The notes below the pieces were generated by a model, which did no database searches, was not told the DNA's origin, and saw nothing but the letters and a program-made list of their open reading frames with translations. Shown in pieces: positions 15,871-37,691 of a DNA stretch of 38,776 bases. The translations under genes and the position numbers were made by a program. How positions within the stretch are numbered: the first letter of the stretch is position 1; each line of letters starts with the position of its first letter. Source of the DNA: a virus; IMG/VR virus record IMGVR_UViG_3300018984_000002, positions 1-38,776 of that record. One strand, 5' to 3'.

Positions 15871-16251
15871 ATGTATTACTTAAGTGACATCTCAGAATTT
15901 GCTCGTAAGAAAGGTAGTAAAGATAAGCAAAAAAGAAAAGTAGGATTATTTGACACCAATAAACCAAGTGTTGTTGGTCAAAAGTCTTTTAAGTTTGGAC
16001 CAAAAAAAGGTAAATATATGAGTAAAGCTCAGGGAGCAGGGTGGGTTGGTTTAGGCACAACATTGGGTAGTGTTGTGGGAGGTACACTTGGTTTAGGCAA
16101 TATGCTGGTTAACAAAAAATACAGTACAAAAGGTATGTTGTCTACTGTAGGAACTGGTGCAGCATTAGGAGCAGCATTAGGTGGTGGAAGTGTATACAAC
16201 GAACACCGTAACAGTAAATACAGTTCACTATATAAAGGTAAAAAGAAATAA
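15871..16251 (+). CDS. basic Gly-zipper protein, leader family
   Basis: MYYLSDISEF-ARKKGSKDKQKRK; two GxxxG-rich hydrophobic helices. Confidence 0.8.
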   Translation: MYYLSDISEFARKKGSKDKQKRKVGLFDTNKPSVVGQKSFKFGPKKGKYMSKAQGAGWVGLGTTLGSVVGGTLGLGNMLVNKKYSTKGMLSTVGTGAALGAALGGGSVYNEHRNSKYSSLYKGKKK

Positions 16252-16284
16252 CTTAAAATTAATATAATTATTACTAACAATCTT

Positions 16285-17202
16285 ATGTATTATTTATCAG
16301 ATATTAGTGAAGCACAGTTTGCAAGAAAAAAAGGATCTAAAGATAAAAGGAAAAGAAAAGGTAAATCGCTACTAAAAGGTGCAGCAATTGGAACATTGGC
16401 GTTAGGAGCTTTAGGGTTAGGTGCTTATGCATTAGCTAAAGGAAAAAGATTACCAATTAAAAATCAACCTATAACTGTTAACTCGCCAATTGACAAAATT
16501 CCTATTACTCCGGAAATGATAAAAGATCAAGAAAAAACAAAAACATATTTAAGACGCTCAAAACTTATGAGCAGAGAATTAAAACAAATGGGTAAGCCTA
16601 ATGTATCTAAAATTCAAACACAAAGAGACAGATTAAATAAAGCATTAAAAAAAGTAAGAAATGATCCAAAATTAAACACTGAAGCTAAAGTAAGAATAGA
16701 AAGTAAAATAAAAAAACGTATTAAGTCTAATCAACAATTACAAAGAACAGCTGCTTTAAATGCTGTTAAAAACAATGCAGATTATAGTTTATTTTTAGGG
16801 GATTATGTAGCACAATTTGCAAGGAAGAAAGGTAGTAAAGATAAAAAGAAAAGACAAAGTAAATTAGGTAAATTCCTTAATGGAGAGTTAAACGCTAAAA
16901 CTGGTAAACGTAATGTCACACTAAGAGAACCTGTTATTAAACGTGCTGCTGTAGGAGCCGGAGTTGGGGCAGCTGGTTTAAGTACTTTAGGTTTAACTAA
17001 AGGAATTGAACTAATAAAACAAGCTCCTCACTTAAATAAACAAGCAGCTAAAAGATTAATAATGGGTAATACCAAATTAGGTTTAATAGCAGGGGGAATA
17101 GTTGGAGGAACACTAGGAGCTGGTTTAGGAGTAGTAAAATATGTGGGTAGAAAAAATACTTTAAAAGATGTTAAGCGCTACGAAATAAAAGCTAAAAAAT
17201 AG
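16285..17202 (+). CDS. basic Gly-zipper protein, leader family (two tandem modules)
   Basis: MYYLSDISEAQF-ARKKGSKDK and an internal ADYSLFLGDYVAQF-ARKKGSKDK. Confidence 0.8.
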   Translation: MYYLSDISEAQFARKKGSKDKRKRKGKSLLKGAAIGTLALGALGLGAYALAKGKRLPIKNQPITVNSPIDKIPITPEMIKDQEKTKTYLRRSKLMSRELKQMGKPNVSKIQTQRDRLNKALKKVRNDPKLNTEAKVRIESKIKKRIKSNQQLQRTAALNAVKNNADYSLFLGDYVAQFARKKGSKDKKKRQSKLGKFLNGELNAKTGKRNVTLREPVIKRAAVGAGVGAAGLSTLGLTKGIELIKQAPHLNKQAAKRLIMGNTKLGLIAGGIVGGTLGAGLGVVKYVGRKNTLKDVKRYEIKAKK

Positions 17203-17261
17203 TCCGAAATAATAAGGGTTTAGCTACCAATTAAACTGTTACCCCTTATATTTTCGGACTC
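17201..17261. repeat. inverted pair of the dispersed TTTCGGAC motif
   Basis: AGTCCGAAATAATAAGGG...CCCTTATATTTTCGGACT between convergent genes. Confidence 0.8.
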
Positions 17262-17279
17262 TTATTGTATTTATTTTTC

Positions 17280-17627
17280 CTAATCAACCAATATATCTTT
17301 ATTCTCTTGTCTAGTGCCTCCTTTTTCTACTAGTTGTTTAAACTTTTCTCCACTACGGAATGTGGGTACTTGGTGAGTTGGAATGTAGTAACTTTGATTC
17401 TTAATAGGATCTTTACCATTACGCTCTTTAAACGTATAGCTGTCATAAGTACCGTGTCCATATATACTTACACGCTCACCACTAGCCACAGTGGTATGAA
17501 TCATATATAAAAAAGAATTCAAAATAAACTTAATCTTGTGCCGTGCAATCTTTTCTCCATACTCACGGTATGTTTTTTCTTGCAACATACATACTAAATC
17601 GTCAATTGTCTTTGAGTTAATGTTCAT
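17280..17627 (-). CDS. HU/IHF family DNA-binding protein
   Basis: GERVSIYGHGTY...ERNGKDP...IPTHQVPTFRSGEKFKQLV matches the HU/IHF arm pattern; ATG 17627 preferred. Confidence 0.85.
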   Translation of the reverse strand: MNINSKTIDDLVCMLQEKTYREYGEKIARHKIKFILNSFLYMIHTTVASGERVSIYGHGTYDSYTFKERNGKDPIKNQSYYIPTHQVPTFRSGEKFKQLVEKGGTRQENKDILVD

Positions 17628-17714
17628 GGCTAAATAGTAATCTGGGATAGTCGTAATTATAACAGGTAAACACAAATGATTTAGTATTAGTAAATATACT
17701 AGAGTTCATTATTT

Positions 17715-20700
17715 ATGCCTGTTTATAATTTAGAAACTACTTTCCCACCAGAAACTAAGACTAAAAATATACTAAAAGAATTAGATGGTATTACAGATAG
17801 TTTTACTGGTAGTCTTGTTAATCAAATAAATAAACTATTACTACACCACATTACCAGTAATAGTACTAAGACTTGGGACGACGCTTTAGCTGGTTTAGAT
17901 AGTAAAAAATTAAAGCCACTAATATATAACCACATTAGTCAGCTCTGGCAGAGTAGTTGGAGTGTAGGTAGTCTTCATGGTAGAAAAGATATTCTGTCCA
18001 TCTACAAGAAAAACAAAGTTAAACGGTTTAATGAACAACTAAATTTAGCTACTTTCGCTACACAAAACAACGATGGTTTAATTGGGCGTTTAAGTAAACA
18101 AATTGAAAATGCAATAAAAGGTCAACAAGAAGTTGGCAAAAAACAAGAAGACTTAGATAGCAGTATTTCTAAATTACAACAAGGTATTAATAATCCCACT
18201 AAATACGCTAAAAATAATATTAATCGTGACAGAAGTTTTAGTCCTGAAGAACAAGAAACTATTAGAAATACTTTATCTAATAGATTAACTGAATTAAATG
18301 CTGAGAAACTAGCGTTAAATAAACAATCGAAAGCACTTAAACAACAAGAAGAATTTGCACGTTATCAGTTAACTAAAGCTGCCAATAATCAGCCGCTTAC
18401 TAATACACAACAACCAACTGTACTTAGTCAAGAAGAAATACAACAACTAAGGAGAGACAAAAAACAGCGACAGCTACTACAAAAAAATGAAAGACAAAGT
18501 ACCAAAGAATTAGAACGTCAACAACAATTACTTATCCCATTAGAAAGTAATAAATCTTTGGCATCCCAAGTTACAAAAGATATTCGTAACCGTAGAATAC
18601 TAGAATCGCAACGTAACAGAGATGTAAGTAATCAATTAAAAGTACCAATTAGTTTAAAAGACGAAACTGAGTTTGGTAAATACTTAGATAAAAGGTATGA
18701 ATATATTGCAAAAAAACTAAGTGACGATGTTAGTGAATCAACTAAACAAAATATACAAAGTTTAATTGGAAATACTAAAAATAAAATTGCCACCTATTTA
18801 TCGAGTACTGAGCAGAAGAGAGAGCGTAATTTGTTACAAGCTTTAAGTCCACTGTATCCAGACTATGGTGCTGAAGCAAGGAAGATTATTAAAGAAAAGA
18901 AAGATAGTCTGTTAACTAAAAAAGAAATACAAGCCCAGCAAGAGATTATTAATAATACTTTTAACCCGCGAGAAAAACGTGCGTTGCAAGAAAAACTAGA
19001 CAGAGATTTGTCTCAAGGTATTACATTAAGTCAAGACCAAGCAAGACGATTAGGTCTTACCAGCAACAAAATAAGCCAAAGAGATCTAGAACAACTATCT
19101 AAAAAGAAATCTGTTTTGCCGCGCATAAAACGTACAGCATTAACAGAGTTGTCAGCAGCTTACAACTATGGACGCTTTGCACACTACGAAGCAGACGGCA
19201 TAGAACTAGTGCGTTGGGTAGTTAGCGTTGAACACTTACGTATGGAAAGACAAACTAAGAAGCCATACAGTGGGCAAGGAGTGGTGTGTGAAATGTGTGT
19301 GGGTATGGCAGATAGGGATACAGGATATGGTCAAGGGGTGTATGATACCTTATTATTTCGGACTGACCGGATGATACCTCCACCAATTCACCCTAACTGT
19401 AATTGTTATCTCGAACCTGTTGAAGGTAAAAGAAATAAAGGTTTATTATCAGGTGGACAATTGGCTAGTGCAGCAATTCTGGGAGGTGTGGCGTTAGCTA
19501 GTATTGGTTTACTAAATAGAATGTTTAATCGTACTCGACCTAGTGTAGCTAGAGCAGCTTTAAATGACTTACTAGAAGATGTTCCTAGATCTGTACTACA
19601 AGAACTTACTGTTCCTACCCAAAATCTTTATAATGTATTGACTGTTAAACATAAAGAAAACTTAAATATACAACTACAAGCTCCAAGTCCCACTTCACAA
19701 CCTATACGTTTATCTAATGAAGAAGATATACTAACCGCTAATCGTGTAATAGAAGATTTAGAAAAACCTATTGTTAATGCTAAGTCAAAATATAGTATTG
19801 GGCAAACAATTAAAGGTCGTAATAATCGTGTATTAACTGAAGGACAACGTGCATTAGGAAATGACATTCAGACTATAAACAAAGCACAACAGTTAATCAG
19901 GGAGTCCGAAAATAAAAGAGCATTATTCAAGGAAAGGTTTCAAGCGGCAGAAGGTAATGTGCAATTACAAAATCAACTACTAAATCAATACAGTAAATAC
20001 ATTAGCGATTTAAACAAAACTATTAACAGTTTGGATATTAGTCAAATTAAATTAGTTAATGCTTACAACAGTGCAAATAATGCACTAGAAGAAACCAAAC
20101 AAACAATGCAAAGATACAGAGCTGTAGATGCTTTGTCACCGGGTTTAGTAAATGCAGATGATTTAGTTAATAATACTAATTCTGTTAAAGTACTTAATAA
20201 TCAAAGTAATAGACTTTATAACAACATAAATAATACACAACAACAACGTAATGAATTTAGAGATACTTTATTAAATACTAAAAACAGTTTAATAAATGAC
20301 ACTAGTATGTCACAGTTGTATCTTCAGAATAAATCAAAAGAATTGAACTATCTAAATGAAATACTTACAGATAATTTAGGTCGTAGTACATTAGAAACTA
20401 ATTTATCTATTGCAGAAGAATATATAAATGTAGTGCGTCAAAGAGTAGTAAATCAGGCGGCGACTAACCCCAGAGATTACACCAAAAGTTTAGCGGATTT
20501 AGAAAATGCAGTAGAGCAACTAAATTTAGTGCGTAGTAGTACAGATAGTTTTAATTTAGATATGGAACTACTGGATCGTGCAGCTAATAACCCAACTGCA
20601 AATATAAACGGTGTTAGTAGTAATCCTAATCAGCAAATAGCCCAAGTAGTAAAAGCGAAGCTCGATAGATTGTCTCAACTAGAAGTAGAAAGTAATAATC

Positions 20701-21005
20701 TGCAAGTACAACTAAAACAGTTAAAAGAGAATAGTCCTAAAGCAAAAGACCAAATATCTATCAATCCAAGACAATTAAATAAAGAAGTACTGTTAAACAA
20801 TATTACACGGCAGATGGGTAGTTTGGCTTACGAGCAACAAAGCTTAAATCCTACTAACCCTAGGTACAATGAAATTAGTAATTTAATTAATGAACTTAAT
20901 GTGCAAAAGAATCAAATAGATAATGCTTATTTCAAACGTGTATTAAATACAGAGTTAATTCAAATAAAACAACCTAAGAAAAGGATTACGGTAAATGGCA
21001 GATAA
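17715..21005 (+). CDS. Mu gpF/SPP1 gp7-like minor head protein with long coiled-coil extensions
   Basis: RTALTELSAAYNYGR...VRW...VCEMC...PPIHPNCNC signature, then a TM-like segment and Q/N-rich coiled coils. Confidence 0.8.
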   Translation: MPVYNLETTFPPETKTKNILKELDGITDSFTGSLVNQINKLLLHHITSNSTKTWDDALAGLDSKKLKPLIYNHISQLWQSSWSVGSLHGRKDILSIYKKNKVKRFNEQLNLATFATQNNDGLIGRLSKQIENAIKGQQEVGKKQEDLDSSISKLQQGINNPTKYAKNNINRDRSFSPEEQETIRNTLSNRLTELNAEKLALNKQSKALKQQEEFARYQLTKAANNQPLTNTQQPTVLSQEEIQQLRRDKKQRQLLQKNERQSTKELERQQQLLIPLESNKSLASQVTKDIRNRRILESQRNRDVSNQLKVPISLKDETEFGKYLDKRYEYIAKKLSDDVSESTKQNIQSLIGNTKNKIATYLSSTEQKRERNLLQALSPLYPDYGAEARKIIKEKKDSLLTKKEIQAQQEIINNTFNPREKRALQEKLDRDLSQGITLSQDQARRLGLTSNKISQRDLEQLSKKKSVLPRIKRTALTELSAAYNYGRFAHYEADGIELVRWVVSVEHLRMERQTKKPYSGQGVVCEMCVGMADRDTGYGQGVYDTLLFRTDRMIPPPIHPNCNCYLEPVEGKRNKGLLSGGQLASAAILGGVALASIGLLNRMFNRTRPSVARAALNDLLEDVPRSVLQELTVPTQNLYNVLTVKHKENLNIQLQAPSPTSQPIRLSNEEDILTANRVIEDLEKPIVNAKSKYSIGQTIKGRNNRVLTEGQRALGNDIQTINKAQQLIRESENKRALFKERFQAAEGNVQLQNQLLNQYSKYISDLNKTINSLDISQIKLVNAYNSANNALEETKQTMQRYRAVDALSPGLVNADDLVNNTNSVKVLNNQSNRLYNNINNTQQQRNEFRDTLLNTKNSLINDTSMSQLYLQNKSKELNYLNEILTDNLGRSTLETNLSIAEEYINVVRQRVVNQAATNPRDYTKSLADLENAVEQLNLVRSSTDSFNLDMELLDRAANNPTANINGVSSNPNQQIAQVVKAKLDRLSQLEVESNNLQVQLKQLKENSPKAKDQISINPRQLNKEVLLNNITRQMGSLAYEQQSLNPTNPRYNEISNLINELNVQKNQIDNAYFKRVLNTELIQIKQPKKRITVNGR

Positions 21006-22596
21006 AACAGTAAAAGTAAAATCTTCAGTACGTAAAGGAAAGATTGTTAAAGGATACAACCGTAGTAAAGGTAAAAATACTAGAGCTAGTTTAGTAGGTT
21101 TGTCTACATTAGCTGGAGCTGCTGGTGGTTTTGTAGCAGGTAGTAAAGTAGGCGCTAGTCATCCATTAATTGGCGGACTAATGGGCACTATAGGTGGTAC
21201 TATTGCAGGGACTGTTGCCGCAAACAAATTATCCAGTACTTTGTTTTTAGATAAAGAACAAAAGAAACAAAAAAAACAACAATTAAACAAAATACAATCT
21301 ACGCAGATTAAAGCTCAAGGATTTAAAGACCCTATACAACAAGCAGCTAAAAGTGGAATCAATCAAGCTATCTTGGGAGGTACTATAGCTGGGGGTATCT
21401 CTTTAACTTTGTCAGATAAAAAATCAGGAGGTTATTTAAGAAGCTTAGTAGGTGGAGGAGATAAAAAGAAAATAGTCACTTTTGAACCTACTTTTGGAGG
21501 ATACGAAGCTACAACAGTTTTGGCTCCAGATCTAAAAAATATGGACAATAAACTGTACTCTAAAATGGGTGGAAAATTAGATGCAGATTTAAACAAAAAG
21601 TCTATTCCTGTTTACGAAAAGCCTCATTCAAAAACACTTCCAAAAATTGCAGACAATATAGATAGTTTTGTAAATCAAAATAATCTTAAGCGAGGAGATA
21701 TATACCAGTTAGACCCTCAAGGATTAAACAAAAGATTTGCTAATAAGTATTTAGCAAAAGTAGCAATTAAAGCACGTAAAGCAGCTGTTGTAGGAGCGGT
21801 TGGTTTAGGAACATACAGTGCTATTAAAACTTACTTAAAAACAAAAGATAATAACAAAAAATATAAGCTAGAAAGAAAATTTAATAAAGTAACTATCCCC
21901 AATCATTTAGCTGAATTCAGTACAAAGCGTGTTACTGTTAAATCTTCTATTCGTAAAGGAAAAATAGTTAAAGGATATGACAGAAATCAACGTTCTAGAG
22001 TAAACGGAGTAATAGATGTAGGTGCTGCAACTATAGGAACAGGATTAGCTTATAAAGGAATAAAGTCTTATTTAAATACAACTACAGAGCTGGCTAATAA
22101 ACCTTACACAGATTCTTTAAGACAACAAAAAAATTACTTTAATGAACCTACTGTAGTAAGCAATAAAGCTAATGCGATTAAAGATAACTACAAAAACAAA
22201 GGATTACAACAATTAAATGAATACAAACGTAAATTAGATAATGCAAAAAATATTACAGATGTAATTGATCCAGGGACAATTAAACCAAATAGTAAAATAA
22301 GTAGTTTAGCTATTCGAGATACACAAAACACTTTAACTGATGAAGTTAAAGATAGTTTGTTACGACAGAAAGTAAAAACAGTAGCCAGTGAACAAGGTAG
22401 ACGCGCCAAAGTAGCTGTTAAATTAGAACAATTAGCTAGTGATAAATATATTAAAAATATGGGTAAGATACCGAAAATCAGTAATAAAGTTACAGCTATA
22501 GGTTTAGCAGGACTAATTGGTACAACCGTAGGTATAGGAGCTGTTAACAGTGTTAGGAAAGTAATAAATAATCGTCGCAGTAGAAAAAATAAATGA
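20995..22596 (+). CDS. basic Gly-zipper protein, two VKSSxRKGK modules
   Basis: VKVKSSVRKGKIVKGYNR at the N-terminus, and again after LAEF-S; several Gly-rich hydrophobic helices. Confidence 0.8.
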   Translation: MADKTVKVKSSVRKGKIVKGYNRSKGKNTRASLVGLSTLAGAAGGFVAGSKVGASHPLIGGLMGTIGGTIAGTVAANKLSSTLFLDKEQKKQKKQQLNKIQSTQIKAQGFKDPIQQAAKSGINQAILGGTIAGGISLTLSDKKSGGYLRSLVGGGDKKKIVTFEPTFGGYEATTVLAPDLKNMDNKLYSKMGGKLDADLNKKSIPVYEKPHSKTLPKIADNIDSFVNQNNLKRGDIYQLDPQGLNKRFANKYLAKVAIKARKAAVVGAVGLGTYSAIKTYLKTKDNNKKYKLERKFNKVTIPNHLAEFSTKRVTVKSSIRKGKIVKGYDRNQRSRVNGVIDVGAATIGTGLAYKGIKSYLNTTTELANKPYTDSLRQQKNYFNEPTVVSNKANAIKDNYKNKGLQQLNEYKRKLDNAKNITDVIDPGTIKPNSKISSLAIRDTQNTLTDEVKDSLLRQKVKTVASEQGRRAKVAVKLEQLASDKYIKNMGKIPKISNKVTAIGLAGLIGTTVGIGAVNSVRKVINNRRSRKNK

Positions 22597-22994
22597 AAAC
22601 CCTATTTATTTCGGACATAGATATATTATTTTCTAGACCTAAAGGAAGCAAAGACAAAACCCCTCGTAAAAAAAGAATCGGGTTAGGTTCAGTGTTGGCA
22701 GGCAGTGCAGTTGCAGGTGGAACTAGAGGTGCTTTGGTTGCACATTTAAAAATGAGAAAAGGATTTAATTTAGTCTTAGCTAATAATGAAGATAATTTTA
22801 AAAAAGCTATTAAGTCAGGAAATCCTCACGCAAATATAATTTATCCAAGTAAAGCCAAATTAAAACAAATTTACATCAAGAAGTTAAGCGGTAGAGCGGG
22901 AAAAAGTGCATTAACTAGTGCAGTATTATCTGGGGCAGGTTACGGAGCATACAACTTAATATCTAAGCATTTAGATAAGAAAAAAACAGAATGA
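22593..22994 (+). CDS. basic Gly-zipper protein, leader family
   Basis: MKTLFISDIDILF-SRPKGSKDKTPRKKR (AT-hook-like). Confidence 0.8.
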   Translation: MKTLFISDIDILFSRPKGSKDKTPRKKRIGLGSVLAGSAVAGGTRGALVAHLKMRKGFNLVLANNEDNFKKAIKSGNPHANIIYPSKAKLKQIYIKKLSGRAGKSALTSAVLSGAGYGAYNLISKHLDKKKTE

Positions 22995-24751: not shown

Positions 24752-26011
24752 ATGACTACACGCACAAGTAAAAAAAGAAATATTAATAATACAGTGCCAG
24801 TCACACATTTTGAGGCACAACCATTATCTGCCGAATTTAAGGAAGCAGATGGACATATTCAGACTAGTGCGTTGATATTAGTCGAAGGCGAACATATTGA
24901 CAGTAAACAACGTAAGCATATTTTCTCAGCAGAGAGAATTCAAAAAATAGCAGACAATACAAATCGCTTACTACAAATGGGTACACGAGTACCTTTTTTA
25001 GCTGATCATATTAAGGCTCAAGACAAAACTTATGGTGATTTAGATGGCTCTATCGAAACTCGTGTAATTACACCAGAAGATATTGGAGATTCTAGATACA
25101 ATCATTTAGTAGGAAAATTTGGTGCTTTTGCTAATCAAATAACAATTAAATCCCGGCAAGCCATAGAACAGTACAGAGATAAGCTACTATCAACTATTAG
25201 TCCTGGTATAGATATTGTTTCGGACTGTATTAGAGAAATTAGTGCAACAAGTACACCAGCAATTGTTGGTCTAAGACTATTTAAAGGTCATGATGCTGGA
25301 TTAGCTACATTTGCTTTATCGTTTGACGAACTAGAAAATAGTGACGATCAAGTAGATCAAGTAAAACAGCAATACGACGAACTTACTGAGGATTTGTGGT
25401 TGGTTTTGGCAAGTATTCTTACTGCAACTGACGAAGCACTAAATGGTCAAGATCAAAGTCAATTAATGGAAAAAGCATTAGATGATTTTGAAACTCGACT
25501 GTTAGAAGTATTAGGTGTACAACCTGAAGACGAAGAATCGGAGCAACAACCTACAACACCAGCTCAAGAAGACACCAAAGCTCAACAAAGTGCTGGTATG
25601 CCAAGGACACTATCTCAACGTGGTAGTCAGGCACAATACAGTCTGCCAGAATCAAACCAAGTATTAGCAGCTTTTACTTTGGATGAGATGGAAAAGTTGG
25701 CTGAGTTTGGTATAGGAAGTGCATTTAAAACAGCACGGGCAGCTTTAGGAGGTGCTGCTAAAAAAGTAGCTACTGAAGCTAGCAAAACTAAAAATATGTC
25801 TAAATTAGGTTTTGGTATTTCCAAAGCCAAAGCCTCTCTGTCAGGAAAAGGTAGACTGAAATCTAATCTAGCTGGTATTGGTGGTGCGGCTAAAGCGGCT
25901 TATGGTACTACTGGTGGTAAAATTGCTGCTGGTGGTTTAGGTGTAGCCGCAGTAGGAGGAACAGCCATGGGAGTAAATAAACTACGTAAACCCAAAAGAC
26001 CCAAATTTTAA
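24752..26011 (+). CDS. putative prohead protease with an acidic linker and a basic Gly-rich C-terminal module
   Basis: Position upstream of scaffold and capsid; VPFLADH...ISPGI...EISATSTPAI resembles Mu gpI/HK97-type head proteases. Confidence 0.65.
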   Translation: MTTRTSKKRNINNTVPVTHFEAQPLSAEFKEADGHIQTSALILVEGEHIDSKQRKHIFSAERIQKIADNTNRLLQMGTRVPFLADHIKAQDKTYGDLDGSIETRVITPEDIGDSRYNHLVGKFGAFANQITIKSRQAIEQYRDKLLSTISPGIDIVSDCIREISATSTPAIVGLRLFKGHDAGLATFALSFDELENSDDQVDQVKQQYDELTEDLWLVLASILTATDEALNGQDQSQLMEKALDDFETRLLEVLGVQPEDEESEQQPTTPAQEDTKAQQSAGMPRTLSQRGSQAQYSLPESNQVLAAFTLDEMEKLAEFGIGSAFKTARAALGGAAKKVATEASKTKNMSKLGFGISKAKASLSGKGRLKSNLAGIGGAAKAAYGTTGGKIAAGGLGVAAVGGTAMGVNKLRKPKRPKF

Positions 26012-26035: not shown

Positions 26036-26626
26036 ATGTCAAAGTCAGTTGTTGCAGCATTTAGTATGTCGGATTTAGAAAGCCTTAATGGTTATTCTCA
26101 TCTGGCTAACTTTGCTCGTAAAAAAGGTAGCAAAGATAAAAAGAAAAGAATGAGTAAAGGGGGCATTGCTGCTGGTTTAGCCGGAGCGGGTGCTTTAGGT
26201 GCTGCTGGAGCTAGATATGGTGGAGGTGCTGCTGCTAAAGTTTATGGTGGATTAAGAAAAGGTGGTGTAGGTCGTAAAGAAGCTGCCAAATCTGCTCGTG
26301 ATGTAGGAGCATTTGTTGGTAAAAACAGATTAAATCAAGATGTGTCAGCTTTAAAAAATATGCCCAGACAAGTGGGTAAAGCTGGTGGACGTTTACTTGA
26401 CTCATTAAAAAGAGCCGGAGGTGCGGCTAAGTCCGGTTTACAAACTCCAACAGGAGCAGGTGGAACTAATGCAGGTAAGCTACGTGAACCACTAAACCGT
26501 TTAGGTAATGCTGCCAAAGGTGGATTAAGTACTAAAGGTGGCAAACTTGGAGCTGGTTTATTAGCTGCTGCTGCTGTAGGTGGAGCTGGTGCTGCCGCAT
26601 TACGTAGCCGTAAAAAAAGGAAATAA
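26036..26626 (+). CDS. basic Gly/Ala-rich protein, leader family
   Basis: VVAAFSMSDLESL...LANF-ARKKGSKDKKKR; Gly zippers at both ends. Confidence 0.8.
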   Translation: MSKSVVAAFSMSDLESLNGYSHLANFARKKGSKDKKKRMSKGGIAAGLAGAGALGAAGARYGGGAAAKVYGGLRKGGVGRKEAAKSARDVGAFVGKNRLNQDVSALKNMPRQVGKAGGRLLDSLKRAGGAAKSGLQTPTGAGGTNAGKLREPLNRLGNAAKGGLSTKGGKLGAGLLAAAAVGGAGAAALRSRKKRK

Positions 26627-26930: not shown

Positions 26931-27890
26931 ATGGCAGGTTTACAACAACTACAAAATACTGAAGAGATTACTGATATTCAGTATCACATGGGACTTTACG
27001 AAGAGTTAATTGAGAATCTTGACAATGCTGTTGAAGCTGGAGTTATGGATGAAGCAACAGCTAAAGCTCATAAAGCACAAGCAATTATTGACCTTAATAA
27101 CCGTTTGTTAGAGTCCGAAAATATTGATGAAGAAGAACTACAAGCAATATACGGCGACTCAGAATATTCGCAAGGTGATGAAGGTGTGGCTAATTTTAGT
27201 ATTGGTAATCGTTTTGGGGCTGCATTAATTGAATTAGGCGAACAAGCAGGTTACGACGATATAAAGTCATTGGTGTATGACATAGCCGAACTCACAGAAA
27301 ATGACCCTGAAGACATTGCAGGACTAATTACTGGGGACAGCGAACCGGACGATAATTTAGCCATTTACCTAGCTCGTTGCTTTGAGCTTGACGAAGAATA
27401 TACTACAGATCTTCGTTTGGCAGCTATGGAAGCTCGTGGTGAAACTCTAGAAGATTACGAAGACAGTGATGAAGATGAAGACGAGGAAGACGCCGAATAT
27501 TCTCAAGTTACGGAACTAAATAACCGTATTGCTGAATTTGAGCAAAACCAACAAATTCGTGATGCTTTAAATGAACTAGAACTAAAAGCCAAACAAGTAA
27601 TGCCTCCGAGTGCAGTCAAAGTATTGTTTGGCGATTTTCAGCTTGAGAGCGATCGTGTTGCTGCATTTTCTCGTACAGCAGATCTTAATGGTGTAGGTGT
27701 TGCAGAAGAACTTTATGCAATGCAAAAAACCATTGAATTGTTCGAGAAAAGTGGACTCAACAAACTAGCCATGTTTCAGTCTTATTCTACTGGTACTGCT
27801 ACAGAAGTGACCGACGAAGACGCTGAAATTGAAGCACAAGCAAAACGTAATTTTGAGTTACGTAAAGCCCGTAGTCACAACTTAATTTAA
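26931..27890 (+). CDS. putative capsid scaffolding protein
   Basis: Very acidic and helical, between protease and capsid genes; multiple A-x-F/Y sites; short basic C-terminus. Confidence 0.6.
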   Translation: MAGLQQLQNTEEITDIQYHMGLYEELIENLDNAVEAGVMDEATAKAHKAQAIIDLNNRLLESENIDEEELQAIYGDSEYSQGDEGVANFSIGNRFGAALIELGEQAGYDDIKSLVYDIAELTENDPEDIAGLITGDSEPDDNLAIYLARCFELDEEYTTDLRLAAMEARGETLEDYEDSDEDEDEEDAEYSQVTELNNRIAEFEQNQQIRDALNELELKAKQVMPPSAVKVLFGDFQLESDRVAAFSRTADLNGVGVAEELYAMQKTIELFEKSGLNKLAMFQSYSTGTATEVTDEDAEIEAQAKRNFELRKARSHNLI

Positions 27891-28777: not shown

Positions 28778-29935
28778 ATGGGATACATTGCCAATTGGCT
28801 AAATGATAAACAACAAGCTAAAGAAGCTGACTGGATTATTGAGTCAACACTCACGACTCTTAAACAACGGTCAGGTATTCTTGACCCGTATATGCCTATC
28901 AAGCAATACGATTCTAGAAACTTCTTGGCTTATGTTGTAGAGCAGATTAACACTATTGCAAGTGTCGTTGCTTATGGGTCTAATATTCCCCTCACACGAC
29001 ATAATGCAATTCAGAAACTGACTATTCAGATGGTCAAGATTGCATTGAGTAGGGTTTACGACGAGCCTACTCAGTGGGATATGCGTGACAGTATGATGTT
29101 TGCTAAGGGAGCAGCTGTTACAGTACAAGACCAAAAGATGTCTGACGGTAGTGTTGTTAAAGGTACTAACAACGATTTAGCTAATTACCTTTGGGGAAGT
29201 ATTGAGCAACTAGTTAAATCGTGTATGGATACCTTAAATGTAATGACATGGCAGTTATTACAGACTGGTACTGTTAATTTTACAGATACTCGAACAGAGA
29301 CTACTACTGTAATTAACTTTGTAGACCCACAAGCTGATTACAATCATTTTCCTGAAACATTAGTACAAACAGGAGCTAATGCTAATCCCCAAGATAATGT
29401 TTGGAGTGATTATGAGTATGCTAACGGACTACAGCGATTGTTCTTGGATGTAGATACCTTTATAGATACTAATGGTAATCCCCCCGACCTCATTGTAATG
29501 AGCCGTAGAGCGCGTAATGATTTACTGAATCAAAAGACTACCAAGGAAGCTGCAAGGCAGATGATGGCTAGTACTCAGGTGGGTACGGTGTCTCCAGATA
29601 TGTTGAAGAACATTCTTAGCGCTAGAGAGTTACCAGAGATTAAAACCTTTGATGAACTATATCAGATTGAGAATGTTAATAAGCAGATTACTAAGGGGCG
29701 GTTTTTGAATGATAATCGCTACTGTTTCTTGGTAGAAAATGCTGGAGTTAGGGCAGTGGGACCAACTTTGGAATCGGCAAACGGAGCATTGGACCTGAAT
29801 CCTAAATCCGGTGTTTATGTGTCTACAAGGGAAGTAAACAAAGAGCCTCCGATTGATTGTACTACTGCAATTATGACTGGCGTACCTTTTGTGGGAGATC
29901 CAAAGAAGCTGTTTTCTAGACAAGTCAAAGCATAA
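28778..29935 (+). CDS. major capsid protein (lambda gpE-like, HK97 fold)
   Basis: 385 aa; ASVVAYGSNIP, WQLLQTG, PDLIVMS, C-terminal EPP...GVP motifs of gpE-family capsids; followed by a terminator. Confidence 0.85.
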   Translation: MGYIANWLNDKQQAKEADWIIESTLTTLKQRSGILDPYMPIKQYDSRNFLAYVVEQINTIASVVAYGSNIPLTRHNAIQKLTIQMVKIALSRVYDEPTQWDMRDSMMFAKGAAVTVQDQKMSDGSVVKGTNNDLANYLWGSIEQLVKSCMDTLNVMTWQLLQTGTVNFTDTRTETTTVINFVDPQADYNHFPETLVQTGANANPQDNVWSDYEYANGLQRLFLDVDTFIDTNGNPPDLIVMSRRARNDLLNQKTTKEAARQMMASTQVGTVSPDMLKNILSARELPEIKTFDELYQIENVNKQITKGRFLNDNRYCFLVENAGVRAVGPTLESANGALDLNPKSGVYVSTREVNKEPPIDCTTAIMTGVPFVGDPKKLFSRQVKA

Positions 29936-31201: not shown

Positions 31202-31501
31202 ATGTATTATTTATCTGACTTTAACACTGCTAATTTTGCTAGAAAAAAGGGTTCTAAAGATAAAAAGAAAAGAACTTTAAAAAATCCATTAAAAGCAGGC
31301 TTAATTACTGGAGGATTAGTAGCTGCTACTCCAACAATGATTGGTTTAATGGACAAGGATATTAATAAACTAAAACGTGTACCCGCAAAATACAAGCTAG
31401 CAGCTGCAATTGGGGGATTAGGTGTAGGTGGATTAGTTGGATTAAAAACTAGACAAGAAATGAAAAATGGTGGTAAGTATATTACACCATTACAAAAATA
31501 A
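31202..31501 (+). CDS. basic Gly-zipper protein, leader family
   Basis: True start is ATG 31202: MYYLSDFNTANF-ARKKGSKDKKKR. Confidence 0.8.
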   Translation: MYYLSDFNTANFARKKGSKDKKKRTLKNPLKAGLITGGLVAATPTMIGLMDKDINKLKRVPAKYKLAAAIGGLGVGGLVGLKTRQEMKNGGKYITPLQK

Positions 31502-31548: not shown

Positions 31549-32049
31549 CTAAATAATCTCCTTAACAATACCTAAATCTAAAGCTTGTTTGGCGTTAATA
31601 TAAACTTCTTTATTTTCCCAACCAATCGGGGTTTTTAATTTCTGATTTTCTATCTCTAAACACACTTTAGTTAATTCTTCACATTCAGCTACATAGCTAA
31701 TTGCGTCTGGCTGTTTAACATCATAAAGTGAAAAACTAATTGGGTGAAACAACAACCTTGCATTTTTATACATACTTACATTTTCAGTAGCAAATAAACA
31801 CATAGTTGCTGCACTTGCACAAAATCCACACACAACAATAGAAAAAAGTGCGGGGTTTTGTTGTGCAATTAAATCATATAAAAATAAACCTGCATAAACT
31901 TCGCCGCCACCCGAAGTAATATAAAATGTACTTTTCTTTTCAGTGTCTAAATTATCTAGACACTGTTTTAAATACATTATTCCTTCTTGACATATTCTGC
32001 CTGAATAATAAATAGTGTTGTTGTTTCTGTTGCAAGTATAATCTGGCAT
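31549..32049 (-). CDS. clpP: ClpP-like serine protease
   Basis: YITSGGGEVYAG, CASAA (catalytic Ser), LFHP (His), YINAKQALDLGIV. Confidence 0.85.
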   Translation of the reverse strand: MPDYTCNRNNNTIYYSGRICQEGIMYLKQCLDNLDTEKKSTFYITSGGGEVYAGLFLYDLIAQQNPALFSIVVCGFCASAATMCLFATENVSMYKNARLLFHPISFSLYDVKQPDAISYVAECEELTKVCLEIENQKLKTPIGWENKEVYINAKQALDLGIVKEII

Positions 32050-32081: not shown

Positions 32082-32175
32082 AAGTATCTAGCCATCTAGC
32101 TAGCTAAAAAAACAACAGTTAATTTTTGCTATTTTAATAACTAAAATATAAGTATTACTAGTGTTTAAATAATGT

Positions 32176-33183
32176 ATGTATTTTATTTCTAATATTCAAA
32201 ACAATAAAATAGCTAATTTTAAGACTAAAGAAAAAAAGAAAAACAACAGAGTAGCTATAACTAGCGGTATTGGCGCAGCTTACTTAGGACAAAAAACAAT
32301 TAGATCAGGTATACCTCGTTTGTTAGGTGTACGCTTAGAGTCACATAGTACTAGTAAAAAGACTGCTAAAGAAATACTTAAAAATGGTGGTATTTTAGAT
32401 CCAAATAAAAGTGGTAGCGGAGCTATACGTGCTTTAGAATCTAATGCCGCAGGTGTGGGGACTGATATTAATAAGGCAAAAAATAAAGTATACATAACTG
32501 GTATTCACAAAAATGCTATTGCCCGTGAAATGCCATCTCCTATGGGATTTGGTACTGTTACTGTTGATGCCAAAAAAGAAAACCCGCTTCAGCAAGTTAT
32601 TAACCGAGCAGACCAACGTAGAGGTTATAGAGGTCAAAGCACTATTGATTGGGATTTTGTTAATAAAGATTCTAAAAGGTTTCAAGAATTAGATAAACAA
32701 ACTTTTCAAACACCTTTTGGAAAATCGTTACCTAATCAGCAATTAGCTGATGAGTACACAAATATATTAAAAGGTAATCAAGAAAGACTTGCAGGTGAGC
32801 GTAGTAAAGCCGTATTAAAAGGACAACTACCCACAACAGGTCGTAGTTTATATATTGGTGGTAGCGACGAGTTTTTTAATAAAAACTTTAAGCCTGACTT
32901 CGACGATCCTAGAGCAATGTATTCTGAAGAAAAAGTAAAAGTGTATGGTAATCGTTTAAAAGCCACAGCAGCAGCAATTAAAAAAGAAGGTTTACTAAAA
33001 CTGATGAAAGGTAATCCTAAACGAGTATTAGCAGGAGCAGCAATAACAGGTCTTGGTGGCTTAGGTACGGGTATTTTAGCTAAACGTGCTATTGACAATA
33101 GTATTGGGGAAATTAAAGTAAAAGACTTTTTTAGACGTGGCAAGAAAGTAAAAGGTTATTCACGTAAAAAGAAAAAGAGATGA
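32176..33183 (+). CDS. leader-family protein with a possible ADP-ribosyltransferase-like core
   Basis: MYFISNIQNNKIANF-KTK; SHSTSKKTAKEILKNGGILDP...VYIT resembles H-G-T...I...G..P / Y-x-T ART motifs; C-terminal VKDFFRRGKKVKGYSR. Confidence 0.6.
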   Translation: MYFISNIQNNKIANFKTKEKKKNNRVAITSGIGAAYLGQKTIRSGIPRLLGVRLESHSTSKKTAKEILKNGGILDPNKSGSGAIRALESNAAGVGTDINKAKNKVYITGIHKNAIAREMPSPMGFGTVTVDAKKENPLQQVINRADQRRGYRGQSTIDWDFVNKDSKRFQELDKQTFQTPFGKSLPNQQLADEYTNILKGNQERLAGERSKAVLKGQLPTTGRSLYIGGSDEFFNKNFKPDFDDPRAMYSEEKVKVYGNRLKATAAAIKKEGLLKLMKGNPKRVLAGAAITGLGGLGTGILAKRAIDNSIGEIKVKDFFRRGKKVKGYSRKKKKR

Positions 33184-33521
33184 CCACACTATTTATTTCG
33201 GACTGCATTACATTTAGTAGAAAACTAGGAAGTAAAAACAAACGAGTAAAATACAAAGGACAAACCTTTGAAATAAGTAGACCAAAATCAGCTACACAAA
33301 AAGGTAAGAAAAAACAAGTAACTGTACGCAACACAAGTACTGGACGAACAAAAACAGTAGCATACGGTGCTAAAGGTTATTCTGATTTTAGAAAAAATAA
33401 AAACGACAAACGTCGAGATAACTATCATGCTAGACACAAAGGTATTAAATTAAAAGATGGTAGTCGAGCTACAGATAATCCATTACAACCCGCATATCAC
33501 TCTTTACGGGATTTATGGTAA
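33180..33521 (+). CDS. leader-family basic protein with a DUF5754-like domain
   Basis: MTTLFISDCITF-SRKLGSKNK; KK..V...V.YGAKGYSDF...D.RR..Y.ARH...P.Y.S...LW. Confidence 0.6.
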   Translation: MTTLFISDCITFSRKLGSKNKRVKYKGQTFEISRPKSATQKGKKKQVTVRNTSTGRTKTVAYGAKGYSDFRKNKNDKRRDNYHARHKGIKLKDGSRATDNPLQPAYHSLRDLW

Positions 33522-33589
33522 GAGTCCGAAATAATAGGGTTTAGGTGTTTATCGTTTAAAATAAAATTAACTATACAATACTAATATTT

Positions 33590-35077
33590 ATGGCTAGTCT
33601 ACCCAGTAAACAAGATGTTATTGATAATCTAAATACTTTTTATGGCGTTAATAGATACACAGACTTTGACAAAATACCTTTTGAAGAATTAGCTTTAAGT
33701 ATATTAATTCATTTAAATAGTAATAGTTCTGGCGGCGGTGGAATTGTTGGGGATAGTGTTAGTGTTAGTAACTTTCCTAGTAATCAAACAATATCTGGTA
33801 ATGTAAGTGTAAATAATTTTCCAGAAACACAAGCAGTAGTTGGTGTTGTTAGTGTTAGTAATTTACCCACAACACAACCTGTTAATGGTACAGTTAATAT
33901 TGGCAACTTCCCAAGTACCCAAGCTGTTTCTGGCAATATCAGTATCACTAATTTACCAGAAAACCAGACTGTAAATGGTACTGTAAATATTGGAAATTTT
34001 CCTACTACACAACCAGTTAGTGCAAGTAGTTTACCTTTACCCACCGGAGCTGCAACAGAAACGACTTTAAGTAATTTACTTACTAAATTACCAACCAATT
34101 TGTCTGGGGGGAGATTGTCGGTAGATGGTAGTGGAGTAACGCAACCAGTAAGTGGGTCAGTAACTGTTAGCAATTTTCCAAACACACAACCCGTAAGTTT
34201 AGTTAGTTTACCTAGTTTACCAACTGGTAACAATAGTATCGGCAGTGTAACAGTTAGTAACTTTCCTAATAATCAAAGTGTTAGCGTCACAGCATTGCCC
34301 TCAATACCCTTACCAACTAATGCAGCTACTGAAACTACGTTATTAAATATTGTTAGCAAGCTACCTAGTGAACTTAGTAGCGGTGGTAGATTAATTATTG
34401 ATGGCAGTGGGGTTACTCAGCCAGTAACTGCTAGTAGTCTACCGTTACCAACAGGAGCCGCGACTGAGACTACCTCAAATAACATTAAAAATAGATTGCC
34501 ACCCAATCTAGGAAGTAACGTAGTTGCAAATAGTCTGCCTGTAACTTTAGCAACAGATGGTATATTTGCCGTAGCGTTTGGCGCTAGGAATGATGTACAA
34601 GCTACTAGTGATACTGCTGACACAGGTTATATATCGTTATTTAAACGATTTTTAACAAAACTTACTAGCTATTTCCAAGGTGTAGCAGGTAGTCCCAACA
34701 ATAACGTTATCACAGTACAAGGACATACTTCGGGTATACCCCAAAATGTAGACCAGTCACGTAATTTAGTTAGTGCAACAATAACCTTTCCGGCAGGTAC
34801 TACATCTAACACTTTTACTATTGATAACAGATTAGCAATTATTTTTTGTCCACCAATAACTGGCGCACCAACATTAACTTTACAAGTTAGCTTTGATGGA
34901 ACAAATTGGGCGAATACCAGTGTGGCGTTACTAGCAGATGCGAGTAACTGGAAACTAATTGAAGCAGACTCGTTAGCCAAAGTATCTGGAGCTTTTGGGT
35001 TGACAAATGCCTTTAGATTTATTAGTTCAGTATCAATTACGGCTGTCACTTTGCGTGTTCGGAGCATTACAAAATGA
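33590..35077 (+). CDS. repeat-rich fibre/structural protein
   Basis: Tandem ~14-aa V.(V/I).NFP..Q.V.G repeats and three LPT(G/N)AATETT repeats. Confidence 0.65.
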   Translation: MASLPSKQDVIDNLNTFYGVNRYTDFDKIPFEELALSILIHLNSNSSGGGGIVGDSVSVSNFPSNQTISGNVSVNNFPETQAVVGVVSVSNLPTTQPVNGTVNIGNFPSTQAVSGNISITNLPENQTVNGTVNIGNFPTTQPVSASSLPLPTGAATETTLSNLLTKLPTNLSGGRLSVDGSGVTQPVSGSVTVSNFPNTQPVSLVSLPSLPTGNNSIGSVTVSNFPNNQSVSVTALPSIPLPTNAATETTLLNIVSKLPSELSSGGRLIIDGSGVTQPVTASSLPLPTGAATETTSNNIKNRLPPNLGSNVVANSLPVTLATDGIFAVAFGARNDVQATSDTADTGYISLFKRFLTKLTSYFQGVAGSPNNNVITVQGHTSGIPQNVDQSRNLVSATITFPAGTTSNTFTIDNRLAIIFCPPITGAPTLTLQVSFDGTNWANTSVALLADASNWKLIEADSLAKVSGAFGLTNAFRFISSVSITAVTLRVRSITK

Positions 35078-35544
35078 GTTTAGGGCTTATTGTTTGTGGA
35101 ACCCCTTTATTTTCTGTTACATATACCTACACTCTTTTAAATAGAAATGGCTGGACTGCAACAGCTTCTAATGAAAGCTCAGACTCATTTATTAAAGCTC
35201 AAGCATCAATAGACTCAGATACTGGCAGTCGCTATTTATCTCAGACAAATCAATATGTAGGAATGTGGGTTGAATTTAATTTCAATGCTTTGATTTCTAT
35301 TGCACAAATAGAAATTCAATGGAGCGGAAATCATTGGGCTAGAGGTTTTAGGTTATTACCCTCCGTAGATGGGGTAAATTATAATACTCAAATTTTTTCT
35401 GGATCAGGTATAAATCCTAGTGTTATACCTACTCAAAAAATTCAGTTTTCTCCTATCGAAGTTAGAAAAATTAAACTAGAAATTACGCAATCTTTTGGGG
35501 ATTGGTTAAGCTTCTTTGAATTCCAAGCTTATAAGGCTGTGTAG
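35074..35544 (+). CDS. discoidin/F5-8 type C (CBM32-like) domain protein
   Basis: GWTATAS...SIDSDTGSRY...WVEFNF...SVDGVNY...VRKIKLEIT...WLSFFEF. Confidence 0.8.
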   Translation: MSLGLIVCGTPLFSVTYTYTLLNRNGWTATASNESSDSFIKAQASIDSDTGSRYLSQTNQYVGMWVEFNFNALISIAQIEIQWSGNHWARGFRLLPSVDGVNYNTQIFSGSGINPSVIPTQKIQFSPIEVRKIKLEITQSFGDWLSFFEFQAYKAV

Positions 35545-35578
35545 TGGTATGCCAAACACTAAAGAAGAATAATAAAAA

Positions 35579-36058: not shown

Positions 36059-36116
36059 TGTTTTTAAATTTTAATATACTTAGTGAAAAAACAATTTCAG
36101 ACCTTAATTTATTTAT

Positions 36117-36509: not shown

Positions 36510-36528
36510 AAACAGATAAACATTAATT

Positions 36529-36552
36529 AAGGGGCTAAATTGGCTCCTTTTT
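36529..36552 (+). terminator. intrinsic terminator
   Basis: AAGGGGCTAA/TTGGCTCCTT stem plus T-run. Confidence 0.55.
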
Positions 36553-36555
36553 ATT

Positions 36556-36939
36556 ATGGATATAAAAGATAGTTACACACCTAAAATAGTGCAACGCTAC
36601 AAACACCTTTTATTTTCGGACTCTACATTACTCAATAATGCAGAAGCACAAATATTTCGTAGTGGAGGTTGCAGTACGCGACTTAAACTACTATCCACAA
36701 ATGGAGTATTAAAACATTGTACTAGTGCAGATTTACATGGAGTTGTTACTAGTGATTATATATGTGAGTTTATTAACAGTAATTTAGATAGTCAAACACT
36801 AAAAGACTATATTACTACTATTAGTAAGCAAGAAAAAACAAATACAGAAATAGATAATATTTTAAATCTAAATACAGTACCTCGTAGTGTTTGGATAATA
36901 GTTAGTTTTTATAAGCAATACATAAATGCAAATTACTAG
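36556..36939 (+). CDS. hypothetical protein
   Basis: 127-aa ORF overlapping the next gene. Confidence 0.6.
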   Translation: MDIKDSYTPKIVQRYKHLLFSDSTLLNNAEAQIFRSGGCSTRLKLLSTNGVLKHCTSADLHGVVTSDYICEFINSNLDSQTLKDYITTISKQEKTNTEIDNILNLNTVPRSVWIIVSFYKQYINANY

Positions 36940-37255
36940 TCGTAAGTTATTCGAGAAATGGAAACGCAATAAAAGTGAATATTTAAGTGTAATTACAGTA
37001 CTACTGCGAGAAAGTAAATACCTTTGTCCTAAGTGTTTAACTAATTTAGATATTTCCACAGCACACTGTTCACATATAGTTAGCTGTAAAACACTAGATA
37101 AATACAAAGCGTTTTGTTTAGCTACTAATATAAATAATCTAACTGTATGTTGTAAGACTTGTAATTTGAAACAAGGTAGTAAAACAGAAACAGATTTAAT
37201 TAGTGAAAAACTCTTAGTACAACTAAAAGAATATAATTTTAGTATCAGTAACTAA
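36926..37255 (+). CDS. HNH/NinG-like endonuclease
   Basis: CPKC...HCSHI...NINNLTVCCKTCNLKQG. Confidence 0.75.
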   Translation: MQITSRKLFEKWKRNKSEYLSVITVLLRESKYLCPKCLTNLDISTAHCSHIVSCKTLDKYKAFCLATNINNLTVCCKTCNLKQGSKTETDLISEKLLVQLKEYNFSISN

Positions 37256-37262
37256 ATATAAT

Positions 37263-37691
37263 ATGCAAACACTATTTATTTCGGACATTCAAACTGCTAG
37301 TTTTGCTAGAAGAAAAGGTAGTAAAGACAAAACTAAACGAAAAGATAGATCAACTATAGGTAGATTAGTGGGAGCGGGTGTTGGTGCTGCTGGAGGAGGA
37401 GCTTTAGCCACAGCAGGTGTTGGTATAGCCGGAATGTATTTAGCTAAAAAAGCTGGTGTAGGTGCTGCGGCTGGTGCTTTAGGAGATTTAAAAGCAGCAA
37501 GTAGATTAGCCATGCTGAAAAAACACCGTAAAGCTATTGTGTTAGGTGGAGCTGCTTTGGGTGCTACAGCTGGTGCTACTGCTAATACAGAACAGTTACA
37601 AGAGGGAAGACGTATTGTTAGTACAGGAAATAGAACTTCACAGGAGCTTCGTGGTTTTCTGTCGCTTGGAAAACGATATGGGGTACTGTAG
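37263..37691 (+). CDS. basic Gly-zipper protein, leader family
   Basis: MQTLFISDIQTASF-ARRKGSKDKTKRK; Gly/Ala helices. Confidence 0.8.
   Translation: MQTLFISDIQTASFARRKGSKDKTKRKDRSTIGRLVGAGVGAAGGGALATAGVGIAGMYLAKKAGVGAAAGALGDLKAASRLAMLKKHRKAIVLGGAALGATAGATANTEQLQEGRRIVSTGNRTSQELRGFLSLGKRYGVL

Follow-up and report, generated by a model that had tools for sequence, protein, structure and literature searches.

What is the role of a short leader that recurs, with an abruptly basic stretch behind it, at the start of many otherwise unrelated proteins in the head-gene region of a virus? We address this question for the IMG/VR virus record IMGVR_UViG_3300018984_000002, a genome of 127,110 bp with 33% G+C that is 99% complete per CheckV, and whose first 38.8 kb (positions 1 to 38,776) make up the stretch analysed here, hereafter the window; the whole record is designated G000, and coordinates beyond 38,776 lie outside the window. 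A preliminary description of the window had listed about 12 genes scattered through the head region that share this modular grammar, and all twelve exist and begin as described (Table 1). Herein we report that leader and basic stretch form a module that is real, well delimited and previously undescribed, and that most likely represents a protease-processed propeptide system, which would serve the internal head proteins of a cyanophage-like, long-tailed phage clade.

Definition and specificity of the module

In its complete form the module has a fixed order, running from a hydrophobic-hydrophobic-S/G-D core through 1–11 residues to A/I/S/V-x-F, and from there into A/G/S-R-x-x-G-S-K-D-K-x-K-R. 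It heads a larger unit composed of a leader of 0–27 residues (usually M-Φ-Φ-L/I-S/G-D-Φ, where Φ is hydrophobic), a lysine-rich segment, Gly-zipper helices or occasionally an enzyme, and often a basic C-terminal tail, and such units occur singly or concatenated as small polyproteins. The lysine-rich segment takes two forms, basic A (A/G/S-R-x-x-G-S-K-D-K-x-K-R) and basic B (V-K-S-x-x-R-K-G-K-x-V-K-G). The members have isoelectric points (pI) of 10.0–11.5 and are enriched two- to three-fold in Gly, Ala and Lys; every member but that of open reading frame (ORF) 33180 has between one and three Gly-zipper segments of moderate hydrophobicity, the first of which as a rule directly follows the basic module, and most members consist only of Gly-zipper helices flanked by basic ends.

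Within the genome the complete module is confined to the head region. In a six-frame translation of all 127,110 bp, the pattern [AS]R[KRP][KL]GSK[DN]K occurs nine times, always on the + strand and between 15.9 and 40 kb, and a hidden Markov model (HMM) of the module searched against the same six frames gave 11 matches at 37–58 bits plus the leader-only match of ORF 22991 at 17 bits, with the next best at 10 bits. The preliminary description had held that its proposal would fail if the motif were equally frequent in non-structural genes; this is not so for the full module, whereas the bare hydrophobic-S-D core of the leader does also occur in non-structural genes. Because the codons of the basic module vary synonymously (Ser AGT/TCT/AGC, Arg CGT/AGA/AGG), including switches between Ser codon families, the basic module is conserved through selection on the protein.

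Pfam and PHROGs assigned the members to no family, and the only Gly-zipper match fell below the cut-off (Glycine zipper 2TM, PF05433, with 16.6 bits for ORF 20995 against a cut-off of 24.2; the small members had no match). In PHROGs, no family was found for ORF 15871 and no internal-protein family for ORFs 20995 or 22991. A literature search for KGSKDK returned only unrelated eukaryotic papers, and the motif was not found in the searchable phage literature. Likewise, no prophage source of the module was found among 185,579 prokaryote genomes using a back-translated module pattern, whose sole match, in Salinimicrobium, is due to chance because the peptide is not encoded there.

Distribution of the module

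Following a suggestion made in the preliminary description, the module was also sought beyond this genome. A 41-position module profile compared with 1.84 billion representative proteins (E<=1e-3) retrieved 164 protein clusters, and the statistics below refer to 157 modules from the 150 clusters that were parsed. Numbering residues outwards from a presumed cut after the aromatic residue (P1 before it, P1' after it), P1 is F in 152 modules and Y in 5, and P1' is A in 117, G in 21 and S in 10; at P3 we found A (73), I (29), S (25) and V (19), and at P2 mainly E (60), N (35) and T (22). The module is N-terminal in 108 cases, with leaders of 4–27 residues (modes 10 and 12), and internal in 49; of the N-terminal modules, 79 possess the hydrophobic-S/G-D core. 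In all six long contigs examined (G000, G002, G003, L012, L013 and L022) the module is accompanied by a homologue of ORF 24752, the putative prohead protease of the window.

By capsid protein, the closest cultured relatives of the virus are the Pseudanabaena long-tailed cyanophages Pam2 and PA-SR01 (31% identity over 96–98% of the protein), and a nearer relative (L012) is a 156-kb contig within the 11.3-Mb assembly of the cyanobacterium Scytonema sp. NUACC26; these relationships make a cyanobacterial host likely. A megablast search with 24 kb of the window gave no match to cultured phages.

Indirect evidence for cleavage at the end of the leader

Four independent lines of evidence point, indirectly, to F'A as a cleavage site (the apostrophe marks the cut). 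Seven clusters start with M-A-R-K-L-G-S-K-D-K and have no leader at all, and in the leaderless protein of L021 a stop codon lies six codons upstream of the start, so that its natural N-terminus falls exactly at the predicted P1'. Internal modules, which typically come after the basic tail of the previous unit, match gene boundaries in relatives: residues 170–302 of ORF 16285 correspond to a separate 151-aa gene of a 111-kb relative (L007; 52% identity, E 5e-27), which begins with its own leader, MYYLSDVAQF. Leader length (0–27 residues) and the distance from D to F (1–11 residues) vary, while P3 to P1' are fixed. Lastly, the pattern A.F[ASG] was observed 12 times in head proteins against 2.9 expected, an about four-fold excess that none of 300 shuffles reached, and 6 times outside the head proteins against 9.1 expected; the acidic scaffold has four aliphatic-A-x-F sites, as does ORF 24752. 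The earlier proposal of a propeptide that ends at a shared x-x-F site and is removed by the head protease is thus indirectly supported: the site is shared and recurs in protease and scaffold, the phage encodes an enzyme of the assemblin/gp21 fold (see below), the family lies in the head module, and Gly-rich proteins encoded directly behind the protease of Pam2 are virion components by mass spectrometry; the removal itself we infer.

The same observations bear on the possibility that the module is never cleaved and instead forms the intact N-terminal domain of paralogous late basic Gly-zipper proteins, serving oligomerisation or membrane insertion and perhaps acting at the host membrane (lysis, exclusion) rather than as virion contents. 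The succession of a basic stretch and a hydrophobic helix does resemble a membrane anchor (Kyte-Doolittle values up to 1.9 over 19 residues), and our knowledge of F'A processing is indirect. We nevertheless regard a permanently intact module as unlikely, given the leaderless N-termini exactly at P1', the coincidence of internal modules with gene boundaries, the highly variable leader length, the aliphatic-A-x-F sites in the linkers of protease and scaffold, and the interleaving of the genes with those for protease, scaffold and capsid in every relative.

A putative prohead protease and its own sites

The structural model of ORF 24752 comprises a confident domain at residues 33–178, followed by a helical domain and disordered linkers. 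In an exhaustive structural search, residues 28–186 matched the proteases of varicella-zoster virus (Z 10.6, root-mean-square deviation (rmsd) 2.6, 114 residues aligned), T4 (gp21; Z 9.8, rmsd 2.7, 118 aligned) and human cytomegalovirus (Z 8.4), with unrelated entries at 7.0 or below, and in Foldseek herpesvirus proteases held nearly all of the top ranks (the first 39). ORF 24752 accordingly has the protease fold of herpesvirus assemblin and T4 gp21, in which H86 and S150 are candidate catalytic residues; D85-H86 and S150 are invariant in 13 homologues. Its A-x-F sites lie in low-confidence linkers (179–197 and 257–320) between the N-terminal extension, the protease, the helical domain and the tail, and are kept in homologues. 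In front of the tail, an element AAF-T/S-L/M-x-D/E-M-E...A-E-F resembles the long leader of the next gene, ORF 26036, a leader type that also occurs in L008, L012 and L022. Judged from this resemblance, ORF 24752 appears to carry one family unit at its own C-terminus, which is the main reason for regarding the Gly-zipper/basic bodies as elements of the prohead interior. A complex prediction for the protease domain (aa 28–260) with the leader alignment scored 0.00 and counts neither for nor against an interaction.

Taken together, it is probable that the module consists of a maturation propeptide and, attached to it, a conserved basic N-terminal segment, that it is cut by this assemblin/gp21-fold protease, and that its bearers are internal head proteins. 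The protease would cut after the aromatic P1 of the leader and would likewise process this site where it occurs in the scaffold and in the linkers of the protease itself; about a dozen very basic proteins (pI 10–11.5) would thereby gain a free A-R-K-K-G-S-K-D-K N-terminus and come to lie within the head alongside the DNA. Several points weigh against this explanation. We infer cleavage for every member, and the major capsid protein has no A-x-F site. Strong conservation extends over at least ten residues past the cut, which a cleavage site alone would not normally show and which implies a further function. In this genome an iterated DNA word (see next section) accounts for part of the leader's apparent conservation, and a second, ClpP-like protease is encoded inside the region.

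That this ClpP-like protease, and not ORF 24752, performs the cleavage seems highly unlikely to us. ClpP/S49-type prohead proteases exist in other phages, the gene lies within the head region and the relative G003 has another of the family; however, it stands on the strand opposite to all head genes, was not found in G002 (a record that is 71% complete) and in L008 is not located between the orthologues of ORFs 31202 and 32176, whereas ORF 24752 has sites in its own linkers and is the companion of the module in all six contigs.

Also highly unlikely is a leader that mimics the N-terminal extension of L27 and is cut by a host Prp-type cysteine protease, as are the capsid and scaffold proteins of Staphylococcus phage 80alpha (PMC5744158, PMC9405229). 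The likeness is a short leader ending in F and followed by A-x-K-K: the L27 motif MLxx(D/N)LQ(F/L)F'A(S/H)KK (PMC9405229) parallels MYYLSDISEF'ARKKG in register, with D/N at P5, a hydrophobic P4, F at P1 and A-x-K-K-G past the cut. This agreement is seen for the shortest leaders, but the spacing from D to F is variable, and sites in our virus are also internal and present in its own protease. The Prp family (PF04327) was found neither in the phage at E<=1 nor in the assembly of Scytonema sp. NUACC26 (a candidate host), whose L27 is the short form, MAHKKGTGS; the long L27 is without report from cyanobacteria, the hosts of the nearest cultured relatives. As a separate observation, the predicted mature A-R-K-K-G-S (15901, 16321, 26114, 31238 and other sites) resembles the mature L27 A-H-K-K-G-T-G-S of the Scytonema assembly, a short match that may be chance.

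Protein motif and iterated DNA word

The word GTCCGAAA is present in 85 copies genome-wide. The LFISD leaders of ORFs 22593, 33180, 37263 and 39538, as well as an orphan leader (Table 1), all read TTT ATT TCG GAC, after CTA, TAT or TAC, and TCG GAC plus the preceding TT is the reverse complement of GTCCGAAA. In the TTTCGGAC orientation, 5 of the 17 word copies in the first 45 kb fall within the F-I-S-D codons of leaders, which occupy well under 1% of this sequence. Either the leaders permit the word via synonymous codons (TCG GAC for TCA GAT), or the word shaped the LFISD subtype. Copies in sense orientation inside ORFs read x-F/I-S-D in 18 of 27 cases, mostly in non-structural genes, and since the word yields this peptide in unrelated genes, the bare hydrophobic-S-D core is not head-specific in this genome. 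In relatives that have the word, the same leaders carry it, once in another reading frame (YYFGLLAEF before ARKK).

That the leader merely translates GTCCGAAA and its T-rich flank and has no protein role can hardly be correct and is refuted as a complete explanation, since MYYLSD leaders and ORF 22991 are written in other codons, phages without the word (L003, L012, L022) or with a single chance copy (L013) keep the core in synonymously varied leaders (MYFLSDF, MFFLSDL, MIFLSDC, MIYFLSNI, YFLGDF), and the core is common among the N-terminal modules of the wide search. For the LFISD subtype the word remains a partial confound. Even so, the leader is a protein motif, as its persistence in word-free phages indicates, with the LFISD subtype partly a by-product of the DNA word in this clade; the hydrophobic-S-D core proposed as the leader signal holds as such, but not, in this clade, as a purely protein signal. 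L012 has its own over-represented 10-mer, GGTAGAAAAA, together with its reverse complement (the extended form has 9 copies in 21 kb), and zero copies of GTCCGAAA, so the word system appears to differ between related phages; GGTAGAAAAA does not occur in the L012 leaders. It is a useful caution that a repeated peptide can partly be the shadow of a repeated DNA signal.

Cargo, packaging and cultured relatives

The preliminary description had named enzyme domains among the proteins behind the leader, which was borne out for one member only, ORF 22991. The central domain of ORF 22991 (~aa 95–310) has a GHSSG elbow with S202, D252 and H285 invariant, and its model (predicted local distance difference test, pLDDT, 76.7) retrieved cutinases and lipase A in Foldseek (E 6e-4 to 5e-3, probability 1.0); the domain is thus a cutinase/LipA-like alpha/beta hydrolase. 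Orthologues of ORF 22991 on other contigs retain leader and basic B. For ORF 32176, the structure look-up gave weak leads only (template-modelling score by query <=0.43), including an ADP-ribosyltransferase-like entry.

Docking of the cargo on the scaffold by the leader, a further part of the initial proposal, is made doubtful by the seven leaderless clusters and by many leaders of 4–7 residues. Where the leader consists only of MINF or MYEF, or is missing, the basic module is still present; because the leader is absent or minimal in so many proteins, any packaging signal is more likely a property of the basic module or of the body. On present evidence the leader seems to serve as a removable mask and for recognition rather than to direct packaging. 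Binding of DNA by the basic proteins and their ejection with it are plausible by analogy with T4, in which lysine-rich internal proteins contact DNA (PMC3012670). A more far-reaching idea, which we put forward tentatively and do not expect to hold, is that the module is a portable self-releasing loading tag, cargo behind leader-F'ARKKGSKDK being packed, released by the protease and carried into the cyanobacterium together with the DNA. If this were true, the clade would load ten or more cargo proteins, including membrane-active Gly-zipper proteins and a lipase-like enzyme, some of them as polyproteins. In a wilder variant, the Gly-zipper proteins may arrange lipid within the head; the relative PA-SR01 is sensitive to chloroform (PMC10286775).

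Four head proteins are common to the window and Pam2/PA-SR01, namely the protease (Pam2 gp14 with ORF 24752, E 5e-35), the scaffold (gp18 with ORF 26931), the product of ORF 27906 (gp19) and the capsid protein (gp20 with ORF 28778). Neither the LFISD core nor the RKKGSKDK module occurs in Pam2 or PA-SR01; their Gly-rich proteins, encoded between the protease and scaffold genes, have short leaders ending in ANF or AEF and several internal R/K-K-S-A-N-F sites. Mass spectrometry of Pam2 virions detected gp15, gp17, gp19 and the capsid protein and did not detect the protease gp14 or the scaffold gp18 (PMC9382816, Table S2), a pattern that is expected for packaged cargo and discarded scaffold and protease. 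As no sequence homology was detected between Pam2 gp15–17 and the Gly-zipper family of the window, which share position and composition, this support is by position only, and the lack of detectable homology is a further point against the propeptide explanation.

Gene context

The + strand gene run from ~10.4 to 43 kb comprises the large terminase gene, the head module and tail genes (Table 1). Beyond the window, the ORF at G000 40247 is a leader severed from its gene by a stop codon. In L008 (the 111-kb relative), the ORF 26036 orthologue stops soon past the basic module (7479) and the protease is divided between two ORFs (7581–8872), which may reflect sequencing errors or real frameshifts.

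An HU/IHF-type gene lies inside the head module; no homology was detected between its product and Pam2 gp9, and in L021 a similar gene lies close to the terminase. AAA_25-type P-loop paralogues flank the structural region at 13772–14452 (+), 14794–15675 (-) and G000 46722–47618 (-), with Pfam E-values of 1.2e-4 and 4.3e-20 for the first two and the third copy judged by eye only. Genes with GIY-YIG and AP2 domains at 30041–31114, directly 3' of the capsid gene, and at 37749–38747 (both +) stand among the head and tail genes and are likely homing endonucleases. The portal gene is ~45 kb distant from the protease, scaffold and capsid genes, a layout shared with Pam2; ORF 17715–21005 (1096 aa), whose residues 477–570 resemble Pam2 gp10, is not the portal.

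Table 1 Module members and other features of the record (G000 marks coordinates outside the window)
Feature	Coordinates	Strand	Details
Member, 126 aa, pI 10.3	15871..16251	+	Leader MYYLSDISEF 15871-15900, basic A from 15901, two Gly-zipper segments; 49.9 bits
Two-unit member, 305 aa	16285..17202	+	Leader 16285-16320, basic A from 16321; 53.4 + 45.6 bits
Second unit in ORF 16285	16783-16818 (leader-like)	+	YSLFLGDYVAQF, basic A from 16819; absent from the preliminary list
Leaderless basic Gly-zipper protein, 533 aa	20995..22596	+	Basic B VKSSVRKGKIVKG at N-terminus
Internal HLAEF'S site in ORF 20995	21916-21918 (F codon)	+	Second basic B VKSSIRKGKIVKG from 21937; absent from the preliminary list
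Member, 133 aa	22593..22994	+	Leader MKTLFISDIDILF 22593-22631, DNA word at 22609, basic A variant SRPKGSKDK from 22632; 46.5 bits
Enzyme-bearing member, 402 aa	22991..24199	+	Leader 22991-23029, basic B, long hydrophobic helix, cutinase/LipA-like hydrolase, C-terminal coiled coil
Putative prohead protease with helical scaffold-like domain and Gly-zipper/basic tail	24752..26011	+	Protease domain ~aa 28-186 (24833-25309)
A-x-F sites of ORF 24752	F29 (24836), F187 (25310), F308 (25673), F319 (25706)	+	
Weak member, C-terminus of ORF 24752		+	Leader-like AAF..AEF element, then Gly-zipper and basic tail
Member, 196 aa, pI 11.5	26036..26626	+	Leader 26036-26113 (AAFSMSDLESL...ANF), basic A from 26114; 43.5 bits
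Weak member, 95 aa	26630..26917	+	Leader MLLSEATF 26630-26653, generic basic stretch, Gly-zipper
Member, 99 aa	31202..31501	+	Leader MYYLSDFNTANF 31202-31237, basic A from 31238; 58.2 bits
Weak member, 335 aa	32176..33183	+	Leader MYFISNIQNNKIANF 32176-32220, generic basic stretch, central domain, C-terminal basic B from 33118
Member, 113 aa	33180..33521	+	Leader MTTLFISDCITF 33180-33215, DNA word at 33196, variant basic A SRKLGSKNK, DUF5754; 42.7 bits
Member, 142 aa, pI 11.4	37263..37691	+	Leader MQTLFISDIQTASF 37263-37304, DNA word at 37279, basic A from 37305; 55.7 bits
Two-module gene	G000 39538-40242		Outside the window; not in the preliminary list
Orphan leader ORF, 18 codons	G000 40247-40303		MYYFISDYRAVDFQANLI-stop; directly before, and in frame with, 168-aa gene at 40304
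Basic-B gene	G000 44078-45712	-	Outside the window
Word copies in leader codons	22609, 33196, 37279, G000 39551, G000 40260		
Large terminase	12074-13726	+	
HU/IHF-type DNA-binding protein	17280-17675	-	Inside head module; PF00216, 1.9e-11
Scaffolding protein, acidic	26931..27890	+	Pam2 gp18 homologue; aliphatic-A-x-F sites F89, F203, F246, F282
Major capsid protein	28778..29935	+	phrog_29, 1.7e-15; Pam2 gp20 homologue
ClpP-like protease	31549..32049	-	PF00574, 2.8e-12
Discoidin-type F5/8 type C domain protein	35074-35544	+	Among probable tail-fibre genes; PF00754, 2.3e-12
Mu-type portal	G000 72585-73538	+	PF06074, 4.8e-19

Comparison with known systems and implications

The closest parallel in design is the capsid-targeting sequence (CTS) of T4, carried by IPI, IPII, IPIII and Alt and removed by gp21, a system in which the CTS alone is conserved among diverse cargo proteins (PMC3012670). 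Both systems place a short N-terminal leader with a common end site on otherwise unrelated lysine-rich head-region proteins, and the fold of ORF 24752 is that of gp21. However, the leaders have no sequence similarity, and the site is A/I/S/V-x-F here, with the cut predicted after F/Y, against L/I-x-E with a cut after E in T4. In contrast to T4, conservation peaks on the P' side (RKKGSKDK), the leader may be absent or reduced to 4 residues, units are concatenated, the bodies are Gly-zipper helices, and the virus is related to long-tailed cyanophages and not a T4-like myovirus.

In phiKZ-like phages the cleavage motif is S/A/G-x-E. These giants (phiKZ gp175, SPN3US gp245; PMC5694885, PMC10052503) similarly process many head proteins at one motif, with propeptides and internal sites and an assemblin-fold protease, but have giant genomes and inner bodies and lack a conserved basic module past the cut. 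With herpesvirus pUL26, Mu gpI and P2 gpO, ORF 24752 shares the fusion of a protease to a helical scaffold-like domain through linkers of the self-cleavage type, while a C-terminal Gly-zipper/basic tail and an aromatic P1 are, to our knowledge, not found in those systems. The PA-SR01 orthologue of ORF 24752 was assigned to PF10123 (Mu-like_Pro) by HHpred (PMC10286775), whereas PF10123 does not match the genome or ORF 24752 directly at E<=1. Our literature search found no precedent with an aromatic P1 or with a conserved basic segment immediately behind the cleavage site.

T4 and the phiKZ-like giants are the established cases of propeptides common to internal head proteins; none have been described for long-tailed cyanophage-like viruses. 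If confirmed, the system would reveal the cleavage specificity of an uncharacterised branch of the assemblin-fold proteases, and it would turn about a dozen 'hypothetical' genes per genome, and ~160 metagenomic clusters, into candidate packaged head contents. It would also offer a candidate tag with which to load proteins into the capsids of cyanobacterial phages.

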